A stretch of 48,207 nt of DNA, from the NCBI GenBank assembly GCA_048940925.1, contig JBHLOC010000032.1, forward strand, positions 1-48,207, in the 5' to 3' direction. The notes under the pieces are model-generated. The model ran no database searches and was not told the DNA's origin. It saw only the letters and a list, made by a program, of their open reading frames with translations. Both the position numbers and the translations under genes were made by a program. The DNA comes from Promethearchaeota archaeon (GTDB taxonomy: Archaea; Asgardarchaeota; Lokiarchaeia; Sigyniarchaeales; SOKP01). How positions within the stretch are numbered: the first letter of the stretch is position 1; every line of letters begins with the position of its first letter. Below are positions 15,703-30,345 of the stretch, piece by piece.

Positions 15703-16851
15703 TTAATAAAAAGGATTGTGATATTTTGGATCTTTTTTCTTATATAAAGTCTTTAATTTAATTTCTTTATCTATAAGACCTTCAATATGGCATAGGTATT
15801 CATACTCATCTTTTAAACATAATGTAATAGCAACACCTTTTTTATTCATCCTTGATGTACGCCCTATTCGATGTACATAATTATCTGGAAACTTTGGCAC
15901 ATCATAATTTATAACATGAGAAATATTTTCTATATCAAGACCCCTAGCTGCTACATCAGTAGCTATAAGTAAATTAATTTTATGGGTCCTAAACTGATGT
16001 AATATTTTTTCTCTCTGAAATTGTGTTAATTTGCCTGAAATGATGCCTACTCTAAATTGAAAATCTCTTTGGGATTTTAGTTTCTTAAACAGCCAAGATG
16101 CGGTTTTTCTCGTATTTACAAACACTAATACATGTTTAGGGTTTTCTTTCTTTAAGATTTTTATAAATGTTCTGAATTTTTCTTGATACCGATCAATTAA
16201 GTAATAAAACTGCCTAGTATTTCCGACAGTTAAACTATCTCGACTTAAATTTAAAAATTCAAATTTATTTTTTGTATATTTTTTAACTAATTGTCGCATA
16301 TCATAATCCAAAGTTGCTGAAAACAACATAAATTGGTATTCTGTGTGAATCTTACTCAAAATATATTTCACATCTGGGGCAAAACCCATATCCCATAAGC
16401 GATCTCCCTCATCTAAAACAACAAATCGAATATTTCTGAAGGAAAGTTCCTTTCTTTTAAAAAGATCAATAACTCTACCCGGTGTTCCTACAATGATATG
16501 AACGCCATTCTCTAATTTCTGAATTTGGTTATTAATAGAAACACCGCCATATATGGTCATTGATTTAACTCTTGGATTTCTTAAATCCTTGATAACAGTA
16601 TTAATCTGTTTGGCAAGTTCTCTGGTCGGAACTAAAATCAAGACTTCATTATTTATATATTTTAACTGCTCAAAAATGGGTAATAAAAAAGCTAAAGTTT
16701 TTCCAGTACCCGTTTTAGATTGAGTCATTAAATGATGGCCCTCTATAATTAGAGGGATCGCTTTTTTTTGAACAGGTGTAGGATATATAATATTTAATTC
16801 TTTTAAAGCGAAAGTGTTTCTTTCGCTAATACCTAAATCTTCAAAACTCAA
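15703..16851 (-). CDS. DEAD-box RNA helicase (DEGD variant, minimal core)
   Basis: Q motif PTPVQ, SKTGTGKT, PTRELA, GTPGR, DEGD, SAT, ARGLD, HRIGRTSR. Confidence 0.95.
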   Translation of the reverse strand: MSFEDLGISERNTFALKELNIIYPTPVQKKAIPLIIEGHHLMTQSKTGTGKTLAFLLPIFEQLKYINNEVLILVPTRELAKQINTVIKDLRNPRVKSMTIYGGVSINNQIQKLENGVHIIVGTPGRVIDLFKRKELSFRNIRFVVLDEGDRLWDMGFAPDVKYILSKIHTEYQFMLFSATLDYDMRQLVKKYTKNKFEFLNLSRDSLTVGNTRQFYYLIDRYQEKFRTFIKILKKENPKHVLVFVNTRKTASWLFKKLKSQRDFQFRVGIISGKLTQFQREKILHQFRTHKINLLIATDVAARGLDIENISHVINYDVPKFPDNYVHRIGRTSRMNKKGVAITLCLKDEYEYLCHIEGLIDKEIKLKTLYKKKDPKYHNPFY

Positions 16852-16937: not shown

Positions 16938-19130
16938 TTATTCAAAAATCACTTGGTTAGTTAACTTATCCAATTTTATCAATTTCTGATTTATGATAAT
17001 CCTGACTTTTTTCGAATTAATTTTAGGATTATTTAGGAATAAATCTTGTACTATTGTGTGATATTTTTTTGCCTTCTTCGCTAATTCCTTATGCAACCCA
17101 TTATTTTTATTATAGAGAGGAATAGGGAAAATAAATGGCCTTTTATGAATATGCCTTGAACTTTTTACTAATTTAATATTTTTTGATAAAATAGGTGCAT
17201 TAAAAATAGCTGATAAGAAATTAGCTTCATTTTCAGAATCAGTAGAATAATAATAGTTTTCTGATCCAATAATAACTCTTTGTTCCTTATTATTTATCAC
17301 AGCAGATTTTAAATTCGAACCACTTGCATTGTAAACAACCAAATAAGATTTAGTATACACCTGTTTTTTTAATTTATCCCAATAATTCAAGTTTGCAAAT
17401 AATGTGTTGATATCGCTAGTTTCTTTTTTATGCCTTTGATAAAATGTATTTATCTCCTTGTAAAAACTCATTGCTCTTGGATATTTTTGAAGGAATAAAG
17501 GATCAAAATCAAATTGCTTATTGATTGGTAAAAAAACATCTTTTAAACTTTTAATATAAAAAGGAATGAGATCAATATTCAAAAATGATTTAAAATGAAA
17601 AATCTCTTCAAATTCTTTATCTTCAAAGGTATATTTCCAATTTTTTTTTGCTCTGGACATAACATCAGGATCAGAAGATACCACAAGAAATCCATCTTTT
17701 TTTTCTTTTATTTGGAAAAATACTAGTGTTCTAGGAACTAACGTAGCACCTTGGAAGAATTTATCTTTATAAGGGCTTTTTGCCATTTTATTAATTGCCT
17801 TTAATTGATTATTAGGCAGTAATAATTTTGCTCCATCTTCTTCAATTTTTAAACTTGAGTAGAATATTTCTTGGAGTAACTCTAATTTATCATTTAATAT
17901 CTTAGTTTTAATTGGATATTTTTGAAATATTGTGATTGGACTATCTGGACCAATATATTGAGCTTTCAGACAAACATGGTTAACATTAAAAAAGTAATTA
18001 TTAGGAAAATCCCAGATTTCCAAGTTTTTATTAAAAATTGAAAAAGCTCTAAACTTATAACAGTGGTCTCCATTCAATACACTCTTAGGCATTACAAAAA
18101 AAATAGTACCTCCCTTTTTTAAAAATTTTATAGGTATAGCATAAAAGAAAATTGTTGCTAATTCGATATGTGTAATATATTGGCTTAAAGGTTTTATTCC
18201 TAATTTATCAGATAATATCCGTATTTGGGATTGATATTCTTTATCAAACAAATCTTTATATGTGAGCCACGGAGGATTTCCTATCACTAAATCAAATGAA
18301 TTATACAGTTTATTAATTTCTTTATTTAATTGATTAGTACAATTATCTGGAAATAGAGAATCGCAGAGGTAAATATTGAGTTTTTGGAAATCTATATATT
18401 CTAATTTAAAATATTCTAAAAGAAATAAGGAGATGTTAACTTTTGTTGAAATAATGGCTAAAGGATTTATATCAAATCCAAAAACTTGATGAAAAGCTTT
18501 AAGTTTTGAAGAAAAAGAATTCTGGGATTCAAAAATCTTTAAGAGTATATTGACTATAAAACTCCCAGAACCACATGAAGGATCTAATATCTTTAAACCA
18601 AACTCATATACGTCTCCAACCATTTTTTTTACAAGGTGCAATGGTGTAAAGAATTCCCCCTTTTTATGTCTAATCTCAGAAATAAAGATTTGTTGATATA
18701 TTTCACTAAAAAGGTCTTCCTTAACAAATCTAGCGTTCTCAATTTTATCAAATATTTTACGATATAGTTGTTTTTCTATAGGCGCCCAAAAAAAATATTC
18801 GAATTCAAAGATTTTATATTTTTTTAACTCAATTTCGATATCTTTTTCATCTAAATCTTCAAAATTAAGATTTTTAATTAATTTTATTTTATGAAAGAAT
18901 AGAATCTTTAATAATTGAGTAAAATAAGTATGTTTAAGATATAATTCTAAAGAGACATTTTTGCCATAGATTTTATAGAATGCAATCTTCCACTTTTTAA
19001 AACTTTTTTCGAAATTCTTTTCGGAGATTGATTTCTTTTTAAAGTATCTAATAAATTCATTGTGGATATCTGAATCCAGTCCAAAAATCCTTGTTATTGT
19101 TTCGCAATTAACTATTTTTTCTTTTCCCAT
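16938..19130 (-). CDS. N6-adenine DNA methyltransferase (Type IIG/Eco57I-like MTase + TRD), no nuclease domain evident
   Basis: GEFFTP, LDPSCGSGSF (motif I), GFDINP, VIGNPPW (motif IV); C-terminal TRD-like region (EANFLSAIFNA). Confidence 0.88.
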   Translation of the reverse strand: MGKEKIVNCETITRIFGLDSDIHNEFIRYFKKKSISEKNFEKSFKKWKIAFYKIYGKNVSLELYLKHTYFTQLLKILFFHKIKLIKNLNFEDLDEKDIEIELKKYKIFEFEYFFWAPIEKQLYRKIFDKIENARFVKEDLFSEIYQQIFISEIRHKKGEFFTPLHLVKKMVGDVYEFGLKILDPSCGSGSFIVNILLKIFESQNSFSSKLKAFHQVFGFDINPLAIISTKVNISLFLLEYFKLEYIDFQKLNIYLCDSLFPDNCTNQLNKEINKLYNSFDLVIGNPPWLTYKDLFDKEYQSQIRILSDKLGIKPLSQYITHIELATIFFYAIPIKFLKKGGTIFFVMPKSVLNGDHCYKFRAFSIFNKNLEIWDFPNNYFFNVNHVCLKAQYIGPDSPITIFQKYPIKTKILNDKLELLQEIFYSSLKIEEDGAKLLLPNNQLKAINKMAKSPYKDKFFQGATLVPRTLVFFQIKEKKDGFLVVSSDPDVMSRAKKNWKYTFEDKEFEEIFHFKSFLNIDLIPFYIKSLKDVFLPINKQFDFDPLFLQKYPRAMSFYKEINTFYQRHKKETSDINTLFANLNYWDKLKKQVYTKSYLVVYNASGSNLKSAVINNKEQRVIIGSENYYYSTDSENEANFLSAIFNAPILSKNIKLVKSSRHIHKRPFIFPIPLYNKNNGLHKELAKKAKKYHTIVQDLFLNNPKINSKKVRIIINQKLIKLDKLTNQVIFE

Positions 19131-19179: not shown

Positions 19180-19719
19180 TTATTTTCTCATAAAGCTGGG
19201 CAGCATTAGTGAGAATATTTGTGAAATTTTCCTTAACTTTGATTTTTCTCTAACTGAGGTAACTATTAAAATTGCATTAGCTAATTCTTCTTTAACTAAA
19301 GAACTTCCTGCATAAACCGCTTGTTCACTATTAAACAATAAAAGAAATCTTACATTAGGATTATTAATCATACTAATTCCTTCTGTAAGCTTCAAATCGT
19401 CATATATAGGGCGATATTCTTTCGGAATATCTGCTCTATCGTTAGAAATAAGAATAATAGGTATTCCTCTTTGAACAAGTTTTTTCAATTCTTTAGCGTA
19501 AAAGTCATCAATCTTGGGAGTTACTATATTCAATTGTTCTTTTGTTGAATTAATTAAATTTAATATTTGATCGTTGAGAAAATTTTTTCTTGAAGGGTCA
19601 CCGGATGATTCAATGTCAAACATTCCCACTAAAGTTAAAATTTTATTTTCTAACGCAGTAATTTGTTCTTTAAGTCTTTTATTTTCGATTCTTAACTCAA
19701 GGACTCGAGGATCTGACAA
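19180..19719 (-). CDS. Coiled-coil + PLD-fold-like protein lacking the HKD motif
   Basis: Leucine-zipper N-terminus (LRIENKRLKEQITALENKIL); LINSTKEQLNIVTPKI, RGIPIILISN, and NVRFLLLFNSEQAVYAGSSL in place of HxKxxxxD...GSxN. Confidence 0.65.
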   Translation of the reverse strand: MSDPRVLELRIENKRLKEQITALENKILTLVGMFDIESSGDPSRKNFLNDQILNLINSTKEQLNIVTPKIDDFYAKELKKLVQRGIPIILISNDRADIPKEYRPIYDDLKLTEGISMINNPNVRFLLLFNSEQAVYAGSSLVKEELANAILIVTSVREKSKLRKISQIFSLMLPSFMRK

Positions 19720-19822: not shown

Positions 19823-22408
19823 TTAAGACTTTAATTTTCTCCAAGGTTGACCAAAAAGTAAATAGCTTGATACGGCTAAACTACTTCTTAGATCTATTCT
19901 TCTAACACCTTGCAATGTATTCGATTCTTTTATCTGTTGTTCTACCATATTTTCTAGTTTTTGAGATATACAAGTTTGACGAGCTTTAAGAAGTGATACC
20001 CCTTGACTATTATTATTTAATAAATTTATAAAGAACTCGGACATTATTTGTTTTGTTTCATCATTAAATAAAGGATAAGTTCTTCCAATAATACCAATAA
20101 TTTGTTCTTGATTAAATTGTGATATTATATCCCCCAATATTCTAGGAACATTCCTTAACTTTTGACCCTCGATATTAAAGATTTGGGCATCAACAAACAA
20201 TAAAGGCTGAGTTTTAGATTCTTTTAAACAGTTGTTAATCTCATTAAATGTGATTATCTCTTGATCATTTGTAATAAAATAACTAGCTTTAGGACTCAAT
20301 TTAGAATAGAAGATATTACCTACAAAAATAATAATATGATAAATTCCGTTAGATAGTGTTGATATTATATTTTCGCGGGTAGAATTAGCACCAATCAGTG
20401 AATTGAACTGTTTAATTTCAGTCCTACCATTAAAGAAATCTAATATATAATTTAATTCATTAGCTCCAGCAGAAAATGGAAATATAAATTCTTTTTGTTT
20501 AGTATTTTCGTTCCATTTTAAAGGTCCTTTTGAATTTATCAAATCGATTATTAAGACTTCAAATGCATTGCTTATTGGTTCAAGAGTAAGTTCTTGAGGA
20601 TTCTCGGTTTCAAATGAGATCCCCCCTAAAGGAACTTCACCAATTTTGTAACCACTTGAATATTTTAACAAGAAAAAATTATTATCATAAATTAAATCAA
20701 AGGGGATAGTCATATTATCTACAATAAAGTAAATCTGGGGGATTACATTCAAACTCTCGATTTTAAATAATTTAAAAAAATCTCTTATCACTTTTGGCAA
20801 AAATATATATAATAATTCACCAAAATCAGTTAAATTAAAATTAAATTTTCTCTTTTCGGGCTCATAAAAGATTTCATTATATATCTCAAGAATCTGAGTA
20901 TCATTCCAAAATTCATTTGCGATAACACCCTCAATTATTTTATTTTCAATAGAAATCATTCGATATGAAATCATACCGTTTGAATTGATTCTTATAACTA
21001 TTTGTTTGATCGTAAAACTATCTTTATCTAATTCTGGAACTTTACTCCCATCATCGAATGAATATATTTGAGATCTTATTGGCTCTATTTCATTATATAA
21101 TGAGAAAAGGTCAATTAGGATATTTGCAAAATCTTTATCTAAATAAGGTACGATTTTCTGGGCTAGACTAAAATTTTTTTCTTCAAAAAGAGCTCGATAG
21201 AACATCATTCTCCAAAAATCACGTTGTTCTAAAGAAAAAAATAATGACTTAAATTTCCATAAAATATTACAAGTATAAAAATAATGAAATATTTGAGGGC
21301 TCGTCTGAGGTAATTTTAAATGGGTATCGAGTTTTTCTAAAGATTGTAATAGGAACTTTTTCTCTTTCATATCAACAAATTTTTTACATGCTTCAACCCA
21401 TAGTTCAATTAAAAGATTATCATAAGAAAGATCAGTCTGATAAATAAATAAATCCTCTAAAAAATCATAAATCTCAAATGCCATTTCAAAACGGTTTCGG
21501 TTAATAGCAAAATTAATGAATTTTCTGATATAAGTGACTGCATCGCCATAAGACTGAAATTTAAGGATTTTTGAGAAAATATTTTTAATAATTATGATAA
21601 TCCAAGAATATTCACCGATATTATTCAAATAATATATTAAGTCCTCTAGATCTGCCAGGATTGTATTAAAGCTTCTTTCATTGATAGAAATCCTGCTAAT
21701 GTAGCTAAACTCATTCTTGAGATATACAGGAAGTCTATTAATTAATATTTTATTAATGATTCTAACAAATTCAGAAGAATCTTCCATAAAATTATATTTA
21801 ATACATACATTTTCCAATACCATATAAATAAATAAAGATCTTTTCGCAGGTTCTAAATTGAATATTGTTCTTCCTAATTTTTCTAAACCTGAAGTGAAAT
21901 ATTCTGAAGGAGTAACTGACTTCCTCAAAAACATTAATAATATTTGCAATTCAATTAACTTCTGAAATTCTTTTCTTTCTAATAATTTTGCAGAAATAGA
22001 ATTAACAAATTTAGTAATTCCAATTTGAGATAAATCTTCATTTTTTAGGAATTCTTTTAGAAGATTAAAGCTAAAATTGTCAAATAAATAAAAATCTTCT
22101 AATTTAGATAAAAATGAGAAAAACCGTTTATATGCATCAATATATCTGATTAAATCGATTTTTACTTTTCCTTCTTCTCGTTTTACAAGTGAATTTAAAT
22201 ACATCCACCATGAATTTGAAATGATCATTACTAGTTGATGCTTCTTCTGAACATCTATCCAATCACTTTTCTCAATTACCATAGCTAAATTATCAAGAAT
22301 TTTTCCAGCCCATTGATGATTTGAAGCAAATAATAATTTTCGGGCAATAATTATCTTATTCTGGAAATTAGTTAAAAATTCCTTCTTTAATTCTAAATCA
22401 ACAGTCAT
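19823..22408 (-). CDS. Alpha-solenoid (TPR-like) + CHAT (caspase-fold) domain protein with a degenerate catalytic dyad
   Basis: CHAT hallmarks IPFDLIYD, STRENII, YHIIIFVGN (cf. IHFAGH), LLFVDAQ (cf. VFLNAC), GVSLLKAR, SYLLFGQP; all-helical N-terminal ~450 aa. Confidence 0.78.
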   Translation of the reverse strand: MTVDLELKKEFLTNFQNKIIIARKLLFASNHQWAGKILDNLAMVIEKSDWIDVQKKHQLVMIISNSWWMYLNSLVKREEGKVKIDLIRYIDAYKRFFSFLSKLEDFYLFDNFSFNLLKEFLKNEDLSQIGITKFVNSISAKLLERKEFQKLIELQILLMFLRKSVTPSEYFTSGLEKLGRTIFNLEPAKRSLFIYMVLENVCIKYNFMEDSSEFVRIINKILINRLPVYLKNEFSYISRISINERSFNTILADLEDLIYYLNNIGEYSWIIIIIKNIFSKILKFQSYGDAVTYIRKFINFAINRNRFEMAFEIYDFLEDLFIYQTDLSYDNLLIELWVEACKKFVDMKEKKFLLQSLEKLDTHLKLPQTSPQIFHYFYTCNILWKFKSLFFSLEQRDFWRMMFYRALFEEKNFSLAQKIVPYLDKDFANILIDLFSLYNEIEPIRSQIYSFDDGSKVPELDKDSFTIKQIVIRINSNGMISYRMISIENKIIEGVIANEFWNDTQILEIYNEIFYEPEKRKFNFNLTDFGELLYIFLPKVIRDFFKLFKIESLNVIPQIYFIVDNMTIPFDLIYDNNFFLLKYSSGYKIGEVPLGGISFETENPQELTLEPISNAFEVLIIDLINSKGPLKWNENTKQKEFIFPFSAGANELNYILDFFNGRTEIKQFNSLIGANSTRENIISTLSNGIYHIIIFVGNIFYSKLSPKASYFITNDQEIITFNEINNCLKESKTQPLLFVDAQIFNIEGQKLRNVPRILGDIISQFNQEQIIGIIGRTYPLFNDETKQIMSEFFINLLNNNSQGVSLLKARQTCISQKLENMVEQQIKESNTLQGVRRIDLRSSLAVSSYLLFGQPWRKLKS

Positions 22409-22444: not shown

Positions 22445-23623
22445 TTAATTACTGGACTGATTTTCTTGGCTTTCTTCAGAGATTTTAGGATTATATTCCC
22501 ATCCTTTATTTAACTTTTTTTGTATCCATAACACACTCGTACCAACCCAACTAATATTATCTCTTCCTGAAGCAGCCACTACTTTTACTTGATCTCTAAT
22601 CTTTTCTGAGAAATGTTTTGCAATCTCAACATTTAATCTCTTTTCCAAACCAGGAATTAAACTTGCTCCTCCTGCGAGTATAATATTAGGTAATAATTCA
22701 CCCCAATCCTCTCTATCCCATGTTTTAATAACCTTAGCTATTACCTCTGGTAACCCTATATAGTCAATATGAATTAATGAAGGATCAAATAAAGGTTCTA
22801 CAAGTTGAAATCTCTCTGCATTAATCTCTAGTTTTGAACCATCAGGTAAATCAATCGTACTATTATATTTTGTAAATCCATCTTTAATTCGCCTAAATTC
22901 TCCCTCGGGATCAGTGATACATATGGAAAGTTTTTCTTTGATCTCCTTTGTTATCCTTTTATCAAGATATTCAACTCTTTCAGCACTTCTTCTCTTTAGT
23001 AATAAATTGAGAAGATAATTTGTTAAATCGCTCCCTGCTATCGGGTATGTGTCCCTTGCCATAATATTAGTGAAACCATGAAGGAACGATGTGATATATG
23101 TATTCTCTTCTCCCATATTGACTATCAATGCACTAGTTTTTTGTAATGCAGATAAGATACCTTGACTATCAGGAAGAAAAAGTAGAGCGGGAAATTCAAA
23201 AACATTATAAAAAATATCTCTTAATTTAGTTTTTTCTAAATCAGACATAAAAAATGGTGTTATAATAATAATGGGCTGTTTAAACTGATTTTCATTCGAA
23301 ATTTCTAATTGTTTATAATAATAATGAAAAAATTTCATCATTACATTGTAGTCAGAATGTTTTTTAATTTCCCTGATCTTAAGAATATTTGAATAGCTTA
23401 AAGCATCTTGTCCAAATAAGTGGGGTTCTACATCTTTTTCAGTAATAAAGATATCTTCTAAACCATCGATTACATCTGAAGCAAATAAATAATCAGTCCT
23501 AACAACATAAACACTAGGAGCAATAATATCTGGATAATCATTTCCCGCCCAACCTAAACGGAAATTATCATTCCCAATATCTAAGATTAATGGACGTAAT
23601 TGATTATTGCTCTTAAACGACAT
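22445..23623 (-). CDS. Divergent actin-family (actin-related) protein
   Basis: LILDIG..RLGWAG..P, EFPAL, IAGSDLTNYL, IKEK, DLPDG...ERF..EPLFDPS, ILAGGASLIPGLEKRL and SWVGTSVL are collinear with actin. Confidence 0.93.
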   Translation of the reverse strand: MSFKSNNQLRPLILDIGNDNFRLGWAGNDYPDIIAPSVYVVRTDYLFASDVIDGLEDIFITEKDVEPHLFGQDALSYSNILKIREIKKHSDYNVMMKFFHYYYKQLEISNENQFKQPIIIITPFFMSDLEKTKLRDIFYNVFEFPALLFLPDSQGILSALQKTSALIVNMGEENTYITSFLHGFTNIMARDTYPIAGSDLTNYLLNLLLKRRSAERVEYLDKRITKEIKEKLSICITDPEGEFRRIKDGFTKYNSTIDLPDGSKLEINAERFQLVEPLFDPSLIHIDYIGLPEVIAKVIKTWDREDWGELLPNIILAGGASLIPGLEKRLNVEIAKHFSEKIRDQVKVVAASGRDNISWVGTSVLWIQKKLNKGWEYNPKISEESQENQSSN

Positions 23624-23677
23624 TTCTCTATGGTTAAATTGATTTAATTACATTGTTTATAAAATAGATAAAAGTAA

Positions 23678-24550
23678 TCATGAATATGATGTTTGATGAA
23701 TTAAGTTATCAGTTTCTCGCTTCAGTTGATATTCCTTGATTTGTAATTCCAATAACCCCAAAACTCTTTTGAATTCACTAGACATGGACTCTATGTCAAC
23801 TTCAGCTATTCTTTCTACTTCATCTCGCTTTACTTTAAATAATTCTAAATCAGCTTGGATCTTTTTATATAAATTATTTATAGATACAACTAAATCTTCT
23901 GTATTTTTCTTAGTAATCTTCCGCATCTTCCTTAATATTGCTAAAATATTAGAAATTGAATTTTCCCATCTTTCGTACCTTTTATTATATCCTTTTAATA
24001 ACTCCTCAAAAAATTGCGTTAACTTAGCGTATATATTTTCCTGTTTATCCTTAAGGAAAGAAGGTTTTTCTACACTAACGGGAGGAGTTATTTGTGCAGG
24101 AGACGAAATTTCTTCAATTTCCTGAGGAGGTGGGACTACAGGCCTTGCGTCAGGGTGTGCTTTAGAAGCCACCTCTTCCTTCTTTTTTGGAGGAACTTTC
24201 GTTTTTTCTTTCCTTTTTAATTCTTTTGAAGGTTTCTCTCGATCTTTAACTGAAACCCTTTCAGATAATGGTACATCTTCTAAAATGAATTCTTCTGCAA
24301 TTTTACTCCTAGATTCATGAGATAAATGAGGTAAAACCTTTTCTTCTTCCTCACTTGGACGAACAAATCTCTGCTCTTCTGATACACCTTTTAATAACGT
24401 TTGTAATGTCGTTTCTGTTTTTTTTACCGAATGTAAAGCACCATTTAATGAATATTCTTGAACTTCTTTAATCTCAGAAACTACTTCTTCCTTAGGTTCT
24501 TCCTCTTTTTTTCTCTTTTGAGTCTTTTCTTTTTTCTTCTTTTTTGGCAT
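23678..24550 (-). CDS. Hypothetical protein: K/E-rich disordered N-terminus, Pro-rich linker, C-terminal coiled-coil bundle
   Basis: MPKKKKKE start; RPVVPPPQ; heptad-patterned C-terminal ~115 aa. Confidence 0.75.
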   Translation of the reverse strand: MPKKKKKEKTQKRKKEEEPKEEVVSEIKEVQEYSLNGALHSVKKTETTLQTLLKGVSEEQRFVRPSEEEEKVLPHLSHESRSKIAEEFILEDVPLSERVSVKDREKPSKELKRKEKTKVPPKKKEEVASKAHPDARPVVPPPQEIEEISSPAQITPPVSVEKPSFLKDKQENIYAKLTQFFEELLKGYNKRYERWENSISNILAILRKMRKITKKNTEDLVVSINNLYKKIQADLELFKVKRDEVERIAEVDIESMSSEFKRVLGLLELQIKEYQLKRETDNLIHQTSYS

Positions 24551-24602: not shown

Positions 24603-25016
24603 TCACTGAAATGCTATAACCTCAACTTTAACTGCTTGACCTTTATTAACAAGTTCTTCCTGAAGTTTATCCATGGTTATATCCTGCGGAGTTGGGCTTA
24701 TCACCGTCCAAATCGCTGTTTTGTCTTTTTCGATTACCACACTTTCACCATACATTAGAGAAATTCCCAAATCTCCAAAAACCGTAGCGATTTTAGCTAA
24801 AGAGCCAGGTGCATCTTTGATTGTAATCTTAAACTTTATTGGTCTCTGATCCTCTGAAATTCCTACAGGTGTAATCCTTATTTCTTTTGTCTCAGAATCA
24901 CTTACCAACAATAGTTGGGAATTTGTTGTAAGACCGAGATTCTTCCTAGTCACCAAAGGGAGCACAATTCTCCCGCGATTATCAATTGAAATTATCTTGA
25001 CATCTTTAATTATCAA
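24603..25016 (-). CDS. AbrB/MazE/SpoVT-type DNA-binding domain fused to an ACT domain
   Basis: SIDNRGRIVLP..RKNLGL (AbrB); IKDAPGSLAKIATVFGDLGISL (ACT). Confidence 0.88.
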   Translation of the reverse strand: MIIKDVKIISIDNRGRIVLPLVTRKNLGLTTNSQLLLVSDSETKEIRITPVGISEDQRPIKFKITIKDAPGSLAKIATVFGDLGISLMYGESVVIEKDKTAIWTVISPTPQDITMDKLQEELVNKGQAVKVEVIAFQ

Positions 25017-26625: not shown

Positions 26626-28788
26626 TTATTCCTTATGAGCTTTTAATTTCACAGTGAGATCTCGAGCTCGTTTTGAATACCATACTAGTAGTTCTCCAGC
26701 ATCTTCAGGTTTGAAATACTCCCCACCACACAGAGTCGCGGCGCGTGCCATTAATTCATCGTCAGGATTTCCTAATCCCACTATATAGATAACAACATTA
26801 GGGTTTTCAGAGAATTTTCTAATTTCATTGAAAAAAGCATCACCATCAGTTGGAATCCCGTCAGTAAGTAAGACTATCATCGTTGGTTGATCGGGATTCA
26901 TTTTCTGAAATTCATCTAAGACTTGATGAGCATTTGTCATTGCAGATCCCATGTTGGTCGCTTGTCCATACGCGTTTCCTATCCTATCTACAATCATCCT
27001 AGCAGCATCTTCGAGAACTCCCTTTTTACCACTTGCAGAATCCATATAAAAACTCCCACCGAACGGGAGCACTTGGGCTTCGTCTGCAAAGCGAATTACC
27101 GAGACTTTTTCACCGAATCCTCTTCCTACTTTTTCACTTAGAAACAGCACGGCAGCAAAAGCAGCTGATATCCTGCGTGGTATCATAATTCCATCTTTAA
27201 AATGCTTTAGAAATTCTTGAATTTCTCGAGATTCCATAGCTGCTTTAATTCCCTCGATTGCGGGGGCTATGTTTGTAACAAAAACATCTCTCGCCATCAT
27301 GGACCGGCTAATATCAATAATTAAAATAGCATTAAAGGGGACTAAGCCTACAGGACTTAAGCTTAATGTTGTATTTTCAGTGACAGTGGCGAAGATATCG
27401 CCAGTAAGATCAGGAACAGTAGTTAGAACTGAGCAAGCAATATTAACAGCAGTCCATCTTAACTTTATCCCTTTGAAAATGATATAGTTAGATATCCAAC
27501 CTTTCATGGAGGTAACATTTTCTCTTGCTGTACTTATTATCTCCCACATATTTTCACCAGAGATTGGTGATATTCCGAGTGAAATGCTTTGTAGGGGAAT
27601 AATTGTTCTTGGATTCTTATAGACTTTTACTTCAAAACTTCCAATACCTGAAGCTTCGAGAATTTCACTATCAATAACAATAACATTATCTGGAGTTTCT
27701 TCTACAATATCCACTTTTCCTGCCCCCATAGCACCTGTGAGTTCATCTTCAAAAGCAAGTATGTCATTTTGATTAATAGAAAGAGAATGTTGAGTTCTTG
27801 CGCTTACTAAAGCATATCCCATCAAATTTGGTTGTGATTGGACCTCTAACATCATTTCAGAAACCTTTTGAATAGGAGGTTCTGTGGAAAAAACAACTAC
27901 TTTTTCCGCTTGAACATTAGTATCTTCATATGTATCCCTACTCATTTTTATTTCATTACTACCAATGTTCGCTTGGTCGATTCTTGCTGATCCCCTTGAT
28001 CTGGTCAAGGGATCTTCCCATCCTATCAACATCCCTTGACCTAAACCCAATTGTTGCAAAATAGTGGGACTTAACTGGACTCTTCCGCCTTCAATATTAT
28101 TATCCACTGTAGCAGTAAGAATAATCCCTTTTATTTGACTTTGTAACATTTTTATATCTATTTTATTAGGATATGGTTCAGTTGGAGCAATTTCTTGAGA
28201 AATAGGTTGTTCTATTGTAGGTTGAGGTGGACGAGTAGGCATAGGAGATAAACTGGGTTGAGGTGCAGGAGTAGGCTGAGGACTTGGTGGAGGTGTAAAT
28301 GTTGGTTGAGGTGCGGGAGTAGGTTGAGGCATAGGTGTAGGTCGAGTTGATGGTGAAGGTGTTAGGGATGGTTGAGGTTCTGGAGTGGGTTGAGGTATTG
28401 GTTGAGTCGCGGGAGGAGGTGTAGGTAATGGAGATAATGAAGGTTGGGTTCCTGGTGCAGGAGTTGGTGCTTGTCTTTTTGTTGGAACCTTTGGTACTTT
28501 TAATTCTGGTTGAAGGGTTGGAGTTGCAGTTTTAGTTCCAGGACGTACTATTAATTCTACTCCTGAAAATTGTAAATCATCCAAAATATTTTTAGCAAAT
28601 TGTCCAGCAAAATCTAACATATCATCAGAAATTTCTACTATTGCTGTTTTTTTTAGATTATTGTCACTATTTACAACATCTACTGGATCCCCATTCTTTA
28701 TTCCTAATTTATCAGCATTAGATTTACAAATTATTACTTTATTTGTTATTTCTGGATTACCATCAACAAATAGTTTAATCTCAGGCAT
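26626..28788 (-). CDS. Cdc48/NSF-N-like double-psi beta-barrel domains + Pro-rich linker + vWA domain protein
   Basis: Three barrel-like units (ADKLGIKNGDPV; LQQLGLGQGML; QHSLSINQNDIL); Nc-like subdomain ending ATVTENTTLSL; MIDAS DISRS...ATNM...LLTDG; IYIVGLG. Confidence 0.8.
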   Translation of the reverse strand: MPEIKLFVDGNPEITNKVIICKSNADKLGIKNGDPVDVVNSDNNLKKTAIVEISDDMLDFAGQFAKNILDDLQFSGVELIVRPGTKTATPTLQPELKVPKVPTKRQAPTPAPGTQPSLSPLPTPPPATQPIPQPTPEPQPSLTPSPSTRPTPMPQPTPAPQPTFTPPPSPQPTPAPQPSLSPMPTRPPQPTIEQPISQEIAPTEPYPNKIDIKMLQSQIKGIILTATVDNNIEGGRVQLSPTILQQLGLGQGMLIGWEDPLTRSRGSARIDQANIGSNEIKMSRDTYEDTNVQAEKVVVFSTEPPIQKVSEMMLEVQSQPNLMGYALVSARTQHSLSINQNDILAFEDELTGAMGAGKVDIVEETPDNVIVIDSEILEASGIGSFEVKVYKNPRTIIPLQSISLGISPISGENMWEIISTARENVTSMKGWISNYIIFKGIKLRWTAVNIACSVLTTVPDLTGDIFATVTENTTLSLSPVGLVPFNAILIIDISRSMMARDVFVTNIAPAIEGIKAAMESREIQEFLKHFKDGIMIPRRISAAFAAVLFLSEKVGRGFGEKVSVIRFADEAQVLPFGGSFYMDSASGKKGVLEDAARMIVDRIGNAYGQATNMGSAMTNAHQVLDEFQKMNPDQPTMIVLLTDGIPTDGDAFFNEIRKFSENPNVVIYIVGLGNPDDELMARAATLCGGEYFKPEDAGELLVWYSKRARDLTVKLKAHKE
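28200..28470 (-). repeat. Coding Pro/Gln/Thr-rich repeats (PQPTPAPQP)
   Basis: Repeated ggttgaggt motifs; translation PQPTPEPQPSL / PQPTPAPQPTF / PQPTPAPQPSL. Confidence 0.85.
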
Positions 28789-28922
28789 AATGACTCATTT
28801 GGGTTTTAAATTTATTTTGATATAAAATTCTTTATTAACCTTTATTTGATGATTTATTTTTGAAATTACTTTATAAATTTTATATTAATATCTATATAGG
28901 ATTAATTAATTTCAATTATTTT

Positions 28923-29315
28923 TTATGACATTTGTGGATAGCGTTTACTAATTTCCTGCGAATAATACCTAAAAATCTTTACAACTTTTCCTAAATCTGC
29001 GATTTGTCTTGAAGCACCCATCAGAAAAAACCTTCCTGCAACACTAAGTATTATAAATCCATTGTCACCTCTTAAAACGACTTCAAGCATGTTAGTATAT
29101 CCTAGAGCAGCGATCGCATCAGTACCGCTCTGAACGACTACTGCACTTAAGCTTGAAAATAAATCGGGATCAATATTATATCCTGGAATACATGAAAAAG
29201 CTAATCTCAATCCTTCACGAGTAACTAAGGCTAGTGCTTCTAAATCTGAATATTCTGTTATACTCCCTAAGAATTTTGAGAGAGAGGCAGCCTCTTCTGG
29301 TGTGAGATCTGACAC
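28923..29315 (-). CDS. Roadblock/LC7 domain protein
   Basis: EALALVTREGL, FSSLSA, EVVLRGDNGFIILSVAG and LGKV motifs; GTG start. Confidence 0.9.
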   Translation of the reverse strand: MSDLTPEEAASLSKFLGSITEYSDLEALALVTREGLRLAFSCIPGYNIDPDLFSSLSAVVVQSGTDAIAALGYTNMLEVVLRGDNGFIILSVAGRFFLMGASRQIADLGKVVKIFRYYSQEISKRYPQMS

Positions 29316-29517
29316 TTTTAGCAGTTAAGAATTTTTTTTCAATTAATAATAATTAAATAATTTATCCTTAAAAATTTATATTTCTAATTTTGACTCATTA
29401 CTTTAAATCAAGAGCTATCTATTATTATTAAAGATAATAAAAAAAGAAAGGCTTCAAAGTAAGGCCGAACGGCTTATAATTATAAGATAAATAAAATAAA
29501 ATTGAAATAATGTAATT

Positions 29518-30345
29518 TTAAGTGCTTCCTAACTGTTCTTTGATTTGCTCTTTTAAAATTTCTCTTTTAGATTTACTTTCCACGGGCTTTGTTGTTGTAC
29601 CTGTGCGTTTAAGAAACTCAATAGCTAAAATTTTACCATTTTCACTAAAGATTCTAGGACTATAATCAGCTGCGAAGAAGATTCCTTCGGGAATTGCGCC
29701 CACCTTCGAGATTTCTTTCGTAACTTCTTTTTTACCAAGAAATTGTTGAACTTTCTCTACAACTGAATATGCCTGATTTCCAATTATAATTAATTCTCTT
29801 TCAAATCCTTCTGGCATCTGAATTTCTTCAAGTTTTGACATAACTTCCTGAAAATTAACTGGGGTTTCTTCTGGCATGTAGGTTCCCATTGATGCTTCTC
29901 CTCTATATAACGGACCTATGTTTTCAGCTTCTCGATCTCTGCTTCCTGCTATATTCATACCTTCTGCTGGCTCTGGAGTTCCAAAAATATTTCTTTGTCT
30001 TAAAGGATGACCAGTGGGAGGAGAGACTGCTTCAGCTTTTATCTCCTGTGCGATACCTGCCTCCGTTTTTCCGCCAATCAACTTTATAAACTCAGCATCT
30101 TCTTCACCCTCATCAAGAGGGATTACACTATAATGCATTCCGACTTGCCCTCGGATTTCTTGAGATCTTTTTGCTCCAATGAATTTTGATCTCACACTAC
30201 TTTTAATCCCTTTCCATAGAAAAACTTTTCTTACATCGTCTGATACAAGAACATAGCATTCTTCAGTTTTTAATAAATCCTTGATTGGGCCTTCAGATGT
30301 GAGCTCTGAAGTCGTCCCATCGGGGTTGATTAAAAATAACTGCAT
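29518..30345 (-). CDS. Gelsolin-domain protein with C-terminal domain X (Asgard 1DGelX-like)
   Basis: Gelsolin repeat LKTEECYVLV...VFLWKG..SS...DEGEEDAEF; flexible linker; second domain PEGFERELIIIGN...PRIFSENGKILAIEFLK. Confidence 0.8.
   Translation of the reverse strand: MQLFLINPDGTTSELTSEGPIKDLLKTEECYVLVSDDVRKVFLWKGIKSSVRSKFIGAKRSQEIRGQVGMHYSVIPLDEGEEDAEFIKLIGGKTEAGIAQEIKAEAVSPPTGHPLRQRNIFGTPEPAEGMNIAGSRDREAENIGPLYRGEASMGTYMPEETPVNFQEVMSKLEEIQMPEGFERELIIIGNQAYSVVEKVQQFLGKKEVTKEISKVGAIPEGIFFAADYSPRIFSENGKILAIEFLKRTGTTTKPVESKSKREILKEQIKEQLGST

Follow-up and report, generated by a model that had tools for sequence, protein, structure and literature searches.

A lineage-specific actin-related protein of Lokiarchaeia and its conserved large gene partner

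The locus

The window analysed here is a stretch of 48,207 nucleotides (nt) from a Promethearchaeota archaeon of the Lokiarchaeia (assembly GCA_048940925.1, contig JBHLOC010000032.1), and the subject of this study is a gene within it, at 22445-23623, that encodes an actin-related protein, hereafter the ARP. The gene lies in a row of four on the reverse strand, and the gene directly downstream encodes a large protein of 861 amino acids (aa). Coordinates are those of the window.

22445..23623, reverse strand: ARP (P0001) coding sequence, from the open reading frame list and its translation; 392 aa plus stop
19823..22408, reverse strand: large partner gene, whose 861-aa product combines helical repeats with a CHAT-like domain at the C-terminus; 36 nt 3' of the ARP stop
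23678..24550, reverse strand: gene for a 290-aa protein, upstream, ending 54 nt before the ARP start
19180..19719, reverse strand: gene for a 179-aa protein with an N-terminal coiled coil and a PLD-like fold, 3' of the CHAT-like gene
23656..23664, reverse strand: TATA-like TTTTATAAA, read from the sequence, 33-41 nt 5' of the ARP start codon

The TATA-like TTTTATAAA is a possible promoter of the ARP gene's own.

An actin fold maintained by selection

The ARP matches the Pfam Actin profile (PF00022) with 163.3 bits (E 8.9e-48; cut-off 27), and the match runs from residue 9 to residue 373, or profile positions 4-389 of 410, so that the whole domain is covered. The solved structures closest to it in sequence are actins ('HC1 actin', 9wc4_A, E 1.4e-37; yeast actin, 1yvn_A, E 3.7e-32). 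A structure model, which an initial annotation of this DNA had proposed as a check, was built with AF2 from a 102-sequence alignment that includes distant actins (pLDDT 88.7, pTM 0.86); this deeper alignment was used instead of close orthologues alone, from which pLDDT reached 53.8. The model contains the complete four-subdomain actin fold. In a structural search it retrieves actin on top (Z 39.4, rmsd 2.3 over 339 residues), with Arp3 at Z 35.5, Arp4, Arp6, Arp7, Arp8 and Arp11 at approximately 30-34, crenactin at 31.4 and MreB at 26; Foldseek gives TM values of approximately 0.8 against actins. The ratio dN/dS, measured against an orthologue of 85% identity, is 0.145, which indicates purifying selection.

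On the basis of the profile match, the structural matches and the dN/dS ratio we regard the ARP as a real, selected gene with an actin fold. The initial annotation had called it an actin paralogue, and this is borne out by the Pfam match and the model. Matches to NCBIfam were all below threshold (MamK, BeeR, salactin), and a search for longer or fused forms of the ARP at E <= 1e-20 found none, a result that carries little weight.

Paralogues, distribution and phylogeny

Five genes of the actin family are present in the genome (4.8 Mb, 90 contigs), and the ARP is the most divergent of them. The genes are listed with their scores against Pfam Actin and, for the Lokiactins, the motifs of the phosphate-1 and phosphate-2 loops.

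Contig C40: Lokiactin-type gene; 441 bits; DNGTGISK / DIGDGVSH
Contig C7: second copy of the Lokiactin type; 430 bits; DNGTGISK / DIGDGVSH
373-aa ARP paralogue: 287 bits
508-aa ARP paralogue with a zinc-ribbon insert: 214 bits
22445-23623 of the window, the ARP: 159 bits in the genome scan

Two of the paralogues have peculiarities of their own. The second Lokiactin (C7:31527-32636, forward strand; L002:1453-2613) has a 387-aa frame in which the first ATG, GTG or TTG is found at residue 54, past the phosphate-1 loop; either the start codon is non-standard or there is an assembly or annotation problem. The 508-aa paralogue (contig C18; L004:940-2463) has an insert of approximately 125 residues in which CxxC motifs occur in pairs (zinc ribbons).

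The distribution of the ARP was determined in a sample of 300 genomes from across the phylum, with a threshold of E <= 1e-60 for orthologues. Orthologues, 47-85% identical, are present in 61 of the 68 genomes of the same GTDB family (f1, hereafter the family) and in none of the 233 others. A word-indexed search returned 360 matches at E <= 0.001, the best 120 clusters of which are 64-85% identical to the ARP. In an exhaustive search there is a sharp gap: one orthologue cluster stands at 60% identity and the next match at no more than 31%. Five genomes of neighbouring families, one of them a one-contig genome of 4.4 Mb, contain only matches of approximately 130 bits, far below the orthologue scores and consistent with ordinary actin paralogues. 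The named orthologue records are all from metagenome-assembled genomes of uncultured Lokiarchaeia/Promethearchaeia, and include a record from Loki's Castle sediment (LCGC14_0587260, 68% identity).

In a maximum-likelihood tree of 77 rows the ARP family is recovered with SH-aLRT support of 100, within a 20-row clade that is exclusively Asgard (support also 100) and that includes eight other Asgard ARPs. On the opposite side of the deepest split are both Lokiactins of the same genome, Lokiactins from other classes of Asgard archaea, the eukaryotic actins and the genome's two other ARPs. Branches with SH-aLRT of 100 thus set the ARP apart from Lokiactins and eukaryotic actins, and it does not fall inside the Lokiactin clade, a placement that the initial annotation had named as one that would refute it. 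Its nearest relatives beyond the family are other Asgard ARPs. There is no specific affinity, in sequence or in the tree, to any eukaryotic Arp class; the best eukaryotic matches are actins.

Members of the 20-row clade have in common a residue other than Gly at the position of actin G15, a sensor loop shorter by approximately three residues, an extended D-loop and the absence of the C-terminal helix. In addition they have signatures that are not found in other actins: W302-x-R304, L55, G249 and F338 (ARP numbering). W302 and R304 occur in 100% of family sequences and in 8 of 8 sequences of the sister group, compared to 0-2% of 56 other actins. The ARP itself has W302-x-R304, L55, no G15, the short sensor loop and no C-terminal helix. 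We conclude that the ARP is a lineage-specific actin-related protein of Lokiarchaeia and not a Lokiactin. The separate clade, together with changes at the barbed-end cleft and the C-terminal helix described below, bears out the earlier view of the protein as Arp-like.

The nucleotide site

Position equivalences throughout follow yeast actin numbering, which is the standard actin numbering, and conservation at positions of the ARP was counted over 63 orthologues.

23558..23581, reverse strand: phosphate-1 loop, residues 15-22, DIGNDNFR, equivalent to actin D11-K18
23096..23119, reverse strand: phosphate-2 loop, residues 169-176, NMGEENTY, equivalent to actin D154-H161
23162..23170, reverse strand: D152-S153-Q154, in which D152 takes the structural position of actin Q137 (MAFFT, hhalign, start of the model helix)

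The initial annotation had identified both phosphate loops with these letters, and pairwise, MAFFT and hhalign alignments all place them there. Compared to actin, G15 is replaced by D19, G158 by E173 and H161 by Y176; the last of these, a tyrosine in place of His161, had also been called correctly, as the alignment to yeast actin confirms. Among orthologues the phosphate-1 loop reads D-I-G-[SN]-x-[NFY]-F-R and the phosphate-2 loop [NS]-M-G-E-x-N-T-x. The acidic replacement of the loop glycines, to which attention had been drawn, holds for the ARP itself (D19, E173); it does not hold for the family, in which position 19 is N, K, Q, S, D or H and position 173 is V, E, M, T, A or S. Together with position 176 (Y, N, T, I, S or F) these are the most variable positions within the phosphate loops, and the constant trait is that neither glycine site ever has Gly.

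Other parts of the site are strongly conserved. The aspartate and the basic residue that characterise the phosphate-1 loop are both present: D15 is found in 60 of 63 orthologues (E in the other three) and R22 in all 63. G17, G171, the acidic residue 172, N174 and T175 are invariant or at least 90% conserved. The adenosine pocket is retained, with K229 (actin K213) and G318 and G319 (actin G301-G302) in 63/63, and L322 and I323 (actin M305 and Y306) in 62 and 61 orthologues, respectively; position 230 (actin E214) is E in 34, D in 23 and N in 5.

The residues of actin that carry out hydrolysis show a different picture. The equivalent of D154 is N in 40, S in 19, H in 2 and Q in 2 of the 63 orthologues, and Asp in none, so that with the variable His161 equivalent two of the three hydrolysis residues are lost family-wide. 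The third, Gln137, had been reported as kept, in the motif DSQG. This we correct: it is D152 that aligns with Q137 in MAFFT and hhalign, without gaps, and the modelled helix begins at residue 152. The spacing from P130 to D154 in actin equals that from P145 to N169 in the ARP. Glu occupies position 152 in 43 orthologues and Asp in the other 20, and Q154 (62/63) lies two residues downstream. Q154 as the equivalent of Q137 was rejected; this pairing was seen only in a pairwise phmmer alignment that needs two compensating two-residue gaps. The phosphate-2 Asp, His161 and Gln137 are therefore all changed in the ARP, and the acidic equivalent of Gln137 could serve as a base. The sensor loop of the ARP is three residues shorter than that of actin.

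An acidic residue at the Q137 position, as in the ARP, is the state in MreB, ParM and Hsp70, and is a possible catalytic base in bacterial actins. ParM, Hsp70, MreB and hexokinase have residues other than Gly at both glycine positions, yet bind and hydrolyse ATP. The phosphate-1 motif of ParM, Hsp70 and hexokinase, D-x-G-[ST]-[ST]-N-x-[KR], has the same spacing as the family motif D-I-G-[SN]-x-N-F-R, and likewise a residue other than Gly at G15. These three differ from the ARP in keeping the phosphate-2 Asp and a small G or T in the phosphate-2 hairpin, where the ARP family has N or S and a variable, often bulky tip. Divergent eukaryotic Arps solved with ATP, going by their titles, are among the structural matches of the ARP model (3qb0, 4fo0, 5tgc).

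Taken together, the conserved residues suggest that the pocket is most likely still in use, most simply for a bound nucleotide; the comparison is with Arp4, Arp8 and Arp7/9, which according to their structure titles were solved with ATP. Actin-type hydrolysis chemistry, on the other hand, appears largely gone. The initial annotation had proposed weak or absent ATP binding or hydrolysis: invariant pocket residues speak against the first part of this claim, and the largely missing hydrolysis residues support the second.

Contact surfaces and the C-terminus

The positions at which actins contact one another in the filament have been rebuilt in the ARP.

23423..23503, reverse strand: enlarged acidic-hydrophobic D-loop region, residues 41-67, from alignments; insert of 10-12 residues
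22745..22789, reverse strand: equivalent of the hydrophobic plug, residues 279-293, FDPSLIHIDYIGLPE, from conservation and alignment
22712..22720, reverse strand: W302-D-R304, the ARP-clade signature, from its presence across the clade compared to other actins
22448..22498, reverse strand: acidic, poorly conserved C-terminal tail, residues 376-392, in place of the actin C-terminal helix

The D-loop had been described as longer and acidic, and it is both. The segment that matches actin P32-G55 exceeds its counterpart in yeast actin by 12 residues and that in the Lokiactin of the same genome by 10, and residues 41-67 include eight acidic and two basic residues; the string TDYLFASDVIDGLEDIFITEKD corresponds to residues 43-64. 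Within the insert F47, S49, I52, G54 and L55 are invariant, and in the plug equivalent F279, P281, H285, D287 and E293.

A ranking of segments by conservation places the two phosphate loops at the 30th and 22nd percentiles of the protein, the D-loop insert at the 93rd and the plug at the 99th, which is the maximum for the protein; the W-loop, LHGFxN, and the region of W302 are also among the best-conserved segments. Across a mixed set of actins no segment is less conserved than the D-loop, although this reference is heterogeneous and the contrast indicative only. With that proviso, the ranking suggests that selection has shifted away from the phosphate loops and toward contact surfaces.

The opposite face is altered too. 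In the barbed-end cleft Y143 is replaced by S or A, L349 by Q368, T351 by K370 and M355 by G374, which makes the cleft polar. The C-terminal helix is absent across the clade: in the ARP its place is taken by the tail (conservation 0.47; residues 384-392 with pLDDT below 50), and proteins of the sister group stop within a few residues of the W356 equivalent. The actin-like barbed-end face on which an Arp2/3-type nucleator depends is therefore not present.

An invariable gene partner

The large gene downstream of the ARP encodes a protein whose family matches the Pfam CHAT profile in 8 of 9 members (best E 6.8e-11), and its look-alikes in an atlas search are CHAT and separin clusters. Read from alignments, the caspase-type His/Cys dyad is not conserved: H-F-x-x-N/Y replaces H-x-x-x-H-G, and there is no conserved Cys. 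A sequence search of the PDB with the 861-aa profile retrieved designed helical repeats only (E 0.005). In the 290-aa protein a variable linker rich in Pro and Glu joins a lysine-rich N-terminus to a conserved helical domain of approximately 115 aa at the C-terminus. The 179-aa protein matches Pfam PLDc_2 below the cut-off (E 7e-4); the histidine of the HKD motif is absent and a C-terminal MLPSFMR is invariant.

The ARP and the large gene lie side by side in each of the 12 family loci inspected, down to an ARP identity of 47%, and in every family genome in which both could be placed. All members of the wider ARP clade that were examined have a helical/CHAT-like gene of approximately 830-890 aa directly downstream, and most of their loci additionally encode a basic/proline-rich helical protein as well as a small PLD-like one alongside. 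In G288, a genome of another family, the four-gene cassette is kept with all proteins 26-39% identical. In G304, a genome resembling that of 'Candidatus (Ca.) Lokiarchaeum ossiferum', the ARP lies between homologues of the 290-aa and 861-aa proteins. On six metagenomic contigs, named here after their ARPs (P0132, P0138, P0130, P0131, P0271 and P0129), the ARP is followed by a large gene in all six cases. Homology of that gene was confirmed for P0131 and P0129 (hhalign 99.65%; BLASTP E 1e-24); for P0271 it encodes 879 aa with a weak CHAT match; and for P0132, P0138 and P0130, whose products are alignment rows, homology is deduced from size and position. Homologues of the 290-aa protein are upstream of the ARP in the family, G288, G304 and the contigs of P0132, P0138 and P0130, and homologues of the 179-aa protein follow the CHAT-like gene in the family, G288 and the contigs of P0132, P0138, P0130 and P0271. 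The ARP gene and the large gene frequently overlap by 4-8 nt or abut, an arrangement that fits translational coupling.

Presence and absence follow the same pattern. The 861-aa profile finds 62-63 of the 68 family genomes, 2 of 7 genomes of the neighbouring family and 0 of 226 elsewhere in the phylum, and the five family genomes that do not have the gene (G099, G198, G231, G258 and G267, two of them 99% complete) do not have the ARP either. The invariable pairing with a large CHAT-like gene is the strongest clue to the function of the ARP.

Several observations concern the surroundings of the cassette. Two genomes of the genus g3 contain partial matches to the 861-aa protein with in-frame stops, and no match to the ARP (G129:C20:13112-13783 and G180:C513:4718-6100); these may be decayed cassettes, or may reflect an effect of contig ends. 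Directly 5' of the 290-aa gene, at 24603-25016 on the reverse strand, is a gene for a 137-aa protein with a sub-threshold ACT-domain match, present in 12/12 family loci and not in other lineages. PADLOC returned no match for the ARP or for the 861-aa, 290-aa, 179-aa and 137-aa proteins. Further neighbours in the window, all on the reverse strand, are as follows.

16938-19130, reverse strand: 730-aa N6-adenine methyltransferase of the type IIG/Eco57I kind, after the cassette
15703-16851, reverse strand: 382-aa DEAD-box helicase, after the methyltransferase
26626-30345, reverse strand: 720-aa VWA protein, 130-aa Roadblock/LC7 protein and 275-aa protein with no Pfam match; together a syntenic block in the majority of family loci

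Synteny of the methyltransferase and the helicase is limited to the family; G288 and the contigs of P0132, P0138 and P0130 have a gene of approximately 381-411 aa in that place. The contigs of P0132, P0138 and P0130 also have, in 3 of 3 cases and a few genes upstream, a gene for a helicase-nuclease of the Hef type (DEAD, Helicase_C, ERCC4, HhH) and one with a histone fold.

Comparison with known relatives

'Ca. Lokiarchaeum ossiferum' has four actin-family genes, three of them 'ARPs' that include UYP47647.1 (Rodrigues-Oliveira et al. 2023, PMC9834061). For UYP47647.1 a tree position and a transcript level, severalfold below that of Lokiactin, are all that is given, and the only filaments reported from the cells are of the Lokiactin type (PMC9834061). 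In order to relate these genes to the ARP we made use of the published RT-qPCR (reverse-transcription quantitative PCR) primers (PMC9834061), which located G304, a genome of 6.0 Mb in one contig from a neighbouring family, with four actin-family genes, matching the published count. Primer 305F of UYP47647.1 maps within the fourth actin gene of G304, a 363-aa frame 29% identical to the ARP. Because the gene marked by this primer shares the clade and the cassette of the ARP, UYP47647.1 is the closest described protein. UYP44711.1 was rejected as orthologue, its primer 361F lying in a 499-aa gene (G304; L119:7804-9303) whose product is 25% identical to the ARP; from its length this gene is taken to be of the zinc-ribbon type and the counterpart of the 508-aa paralogue.

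UYP47647.1 and the ARP have in common the clade, the cassette, residues other than Gly at G15 and G158, a truncated C-terminus and the W-x-R signature. They differ in that UYP47647.1 is only 29% identical over its 363-aa frame, has a shorter D-loop insert, keeps the phosphate-2 Asp, has an eroded adenosine motif (GQG) and has Asn at the Q137 position. Lokiactin shares with the ARP the fold, the genome, the phosphate-1 Asp, K213, the GG motif and the LPDG and ERF motifs, at 27% identity over the full length; unlike the ARP it has the canonical loops DNGTGISK and DIGDGVSH, retains Q137 and the full sensor loop, and has both a hydrophobic cleft and a C-terminal helix; it scores 441 bits against Pfam Actin compared to 159-163 for the ARP, and branches with eukaryotic actin, to which Lokiactins are approximately 55-60% identical.

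A further comparison is with eukaryotic Arps that are subunits of complexes (Arp2/3; Arp4, Arp5, Arp6, Arp7/9 and Arp8; Arp11 of dynactin). These too have the actin fold with class-specific inserts; they make heterotypic contacts and the nucleotide is often a cofactor, and structural Z scores of 30-35 liken the ARP to them. To Arp4, Arp7 and Arp8 Z is 29-33, below that to actin. The partners are different: CHAT-like, PLD-like and basic/proline-rich helical proteins beside the ARP, compared to ARPC1-5 or an HSA helix. The Pfam profiles for ARPC4 and ARPC2 (PF05856, PF04045) were without match in the genome, a result that is uninformative since control genomes were equally silent; the HSA-helix profile (PF07529) was also without match, with controls silent too. 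In the literature on Asgard CHAT domains and actin and on Asgard actin paralogues we found no description of the ARP clade or of its cassette.

The role of the ARP

The observations of the initial annotation are thus partly confirmed, with two corrections; its interpretation is partly supported, having over-read the loss of ATP binding and missed the partner genes. With these genes taken into account, we put at about even the chance that the ARP serves as a subunit, in roughly stoichiometric amounts, of a multi-protein complex, and not as a filament-forming actin. What makes a subunit role probable is that the ARP always lies beside a large, inactive protease-like gene, and the tight coupling to this gene of approximately 860 aa is what suggests a stoichiometric complex. 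The ARP keeps the complete actin fold and, as predicted from the pocket, would retain a bound nucleotide that may act as structural cofactor or slow switch, fast hydrolysis having presumably been lost with the phosphate-2 Asp, the His161 equivalent and the change of Gln137 to Glu or Asp. The barbed-end cleft and the C-terminal helix have likewise been given up, and the rebuilt polymerisation surfaces (the enlarged acidic-hydrophobic D-loop, the plug, the W-loop and the clade-specific W-x-R on subdomain 3/4) may now hold heterotypic contacts. The core partner would be the coupled helical/pseudo-CHAT scaffold encoded downstream, to which the complex would usually add the basic/proline-rich helical protein and the coiled-coil pseudo-PLD protein. 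Our leading guess is that such a complex acts on, or anchors, Lokiactin filaments. The low transcript level of UYP47647.1, severalfold under that of Lokiactin (PMC9834061), is more in keeping with a regulatory subunit than with a bulk polymer. The fold, the motif changes, the pattern of conservation, the place in the tree and the linkage of the genes are results of the analysis, and from them we infer the retained nucleotide, the absence of a homopolymer, the physical complex and the link to Lokiactin.

A number of points weigh against this proposal. Synteny inside one order may persist by descent, the loss together of adjacent genes can be a single deletion, and no protein in which the ARP is fused to a partner was found. 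The conserved pocket residues, which are the sole basis for a retained nucleotide, could equally be structural, and the L. ossiferum branch shows erosion of the adenosine motif (GG to GQ, GN or GS, with a variable E214 equivalent). Support for the D-loop from the model is modest: confidence there is lower, at a moderate level, with a short helix at 55-59. Finally, the conserved acidic D-loop and the new basic residues K369, K370 and K373 could form a homotypic head-to-tail contact.

This last point leads to a different explanation, namely that the ARP is a divergent actin that polymerises with itself, by insertion of the acidic D-loop into the basic cleft of the next subunit, and constitutes a second, specialised filament system. 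The surfaces that are best conserved (D-loop, plug, W-loop, subdomain 3/4 helix) are the polymer contacts of actin; conserved D44, D50, D53, E56 and D57 face conserved K370 and K373 of the cleft helix; Glu or Asp at the Q137 position is as in polymerising bacterial actins; and the fold is shared with crenactin and MreB-like proteins, which also polymerise. Even so we consider self-assembly quite unlikely, for a one-to-one coupling with the gene of approximately 860 aa would be unusual for a bulk polymer, the phosphate-2 Asp is missing, constraint on the phosphate loops is relaxed, and in L. ossiferum the relative of the ARP is transcribed at a low level in cells from which Lokiactin-type filaments alone are reported (PMC9834061).

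The reading given by the initial annotation, of a nearly or wholly nucleotide-free, non-polymerising Arp that caps or nucleates Lokiactin filaments directly, draws on several observations: the replacement of D154 by N or S, the variable His161 position, the two glycine sites without Gly, the sensor loop shorter by three residues and the placement outside the Lokiactin clade. The conserved hydrophobic-acidic D-loop insert could plug the barbed-end cleft of Lokiactin, and capping in this manner is possible. As a whole, however, this reading strikes us as unlikely. The residues that contact adenosine and phosphate are invariant; ParM, Hsp70 and hexokinase are active with residues other than Gly at both sites, and divergent Arps were solved with ATP. 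Nucleation of the Arp2/3 type is made unlikely by the polar cleft and missing C-terminal helix of the ARP, since it requires an actin-like barbed-end face, and the invariable partner genes are left out of account. A further alternative is that the cassette serves conflict, defence or another non-cytoskeletal purpose, with the actin fold as an ATP-sensing or assembly module. Prokaryotic defence systems often contain CHAT and PLD folds; in the family the cassette is followed by the type IIG-like N6-adenine methyltransferase and the DEAD-box helicase, and in the L. ossiferum branch the Hef-type helicase-nuclease lies upstream. We hold this to be improbable. The four core proteins have no PADLOC match, neither the protease dyad nor the PLD histidine is conserved, and the methyltransferase and helicase neighbours vary among lineages. 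Moreover, nearly all family genomes have the cassette at one syntenic site, inherited vertically, which sets it apart from patchy, mobile defence islands.

Implications

The ARP belongs to a kind of protein that is known and uncharacterised, the Asgard ARPs, among which it stands as a distinct variant by its own signature residues and the conserved four-gene cassette. That such ARPs exist beside Lokiactin has been recognised; in the literature searched they feature only as branches in trees, and we found no paper there that gives any of them a partner, a biochemistry or a role. The clade described here is defined by a rebuilt nucleotide site, by rebuilt polymer-contact surfaces and by obligatory linkage to the genes for a large pseudo-protease-like scaffold and for two small proteins. 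Archaeal Arp function thereby becomes a concrete experiment on four named proteins and Lokiactin, and one member of the clade, UYP47647.1, comes from 'Ca. L. ossiferum', for which an enrichment culture, antibodies and cryo-tomography are established.

A more specific proposal, which we put forward as doubtful, is that this order of Lokiarchaeia has a dedicated Arp machine, in which an Arp whose nucleotide site is remodelled, a separase/CHAT-like pseudo-protease scaffold, a pseudo-PLD coiled coil and a basic proline-rich adaptor dock on Lokiactin filaments or the membrane in order to nucleate, cap or anchor. If true, this machine would be an archaeal counterpart, independent or ancestral, of Arp2/3 or of the pointed-end complex of dynactin. 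Should the complex act on actin filaments, Arp complexes would have come to regulate actin before eukaryogenesis or in parallel with it; should it not, the actin fold would have been recruited as a structural subunit in archaea.

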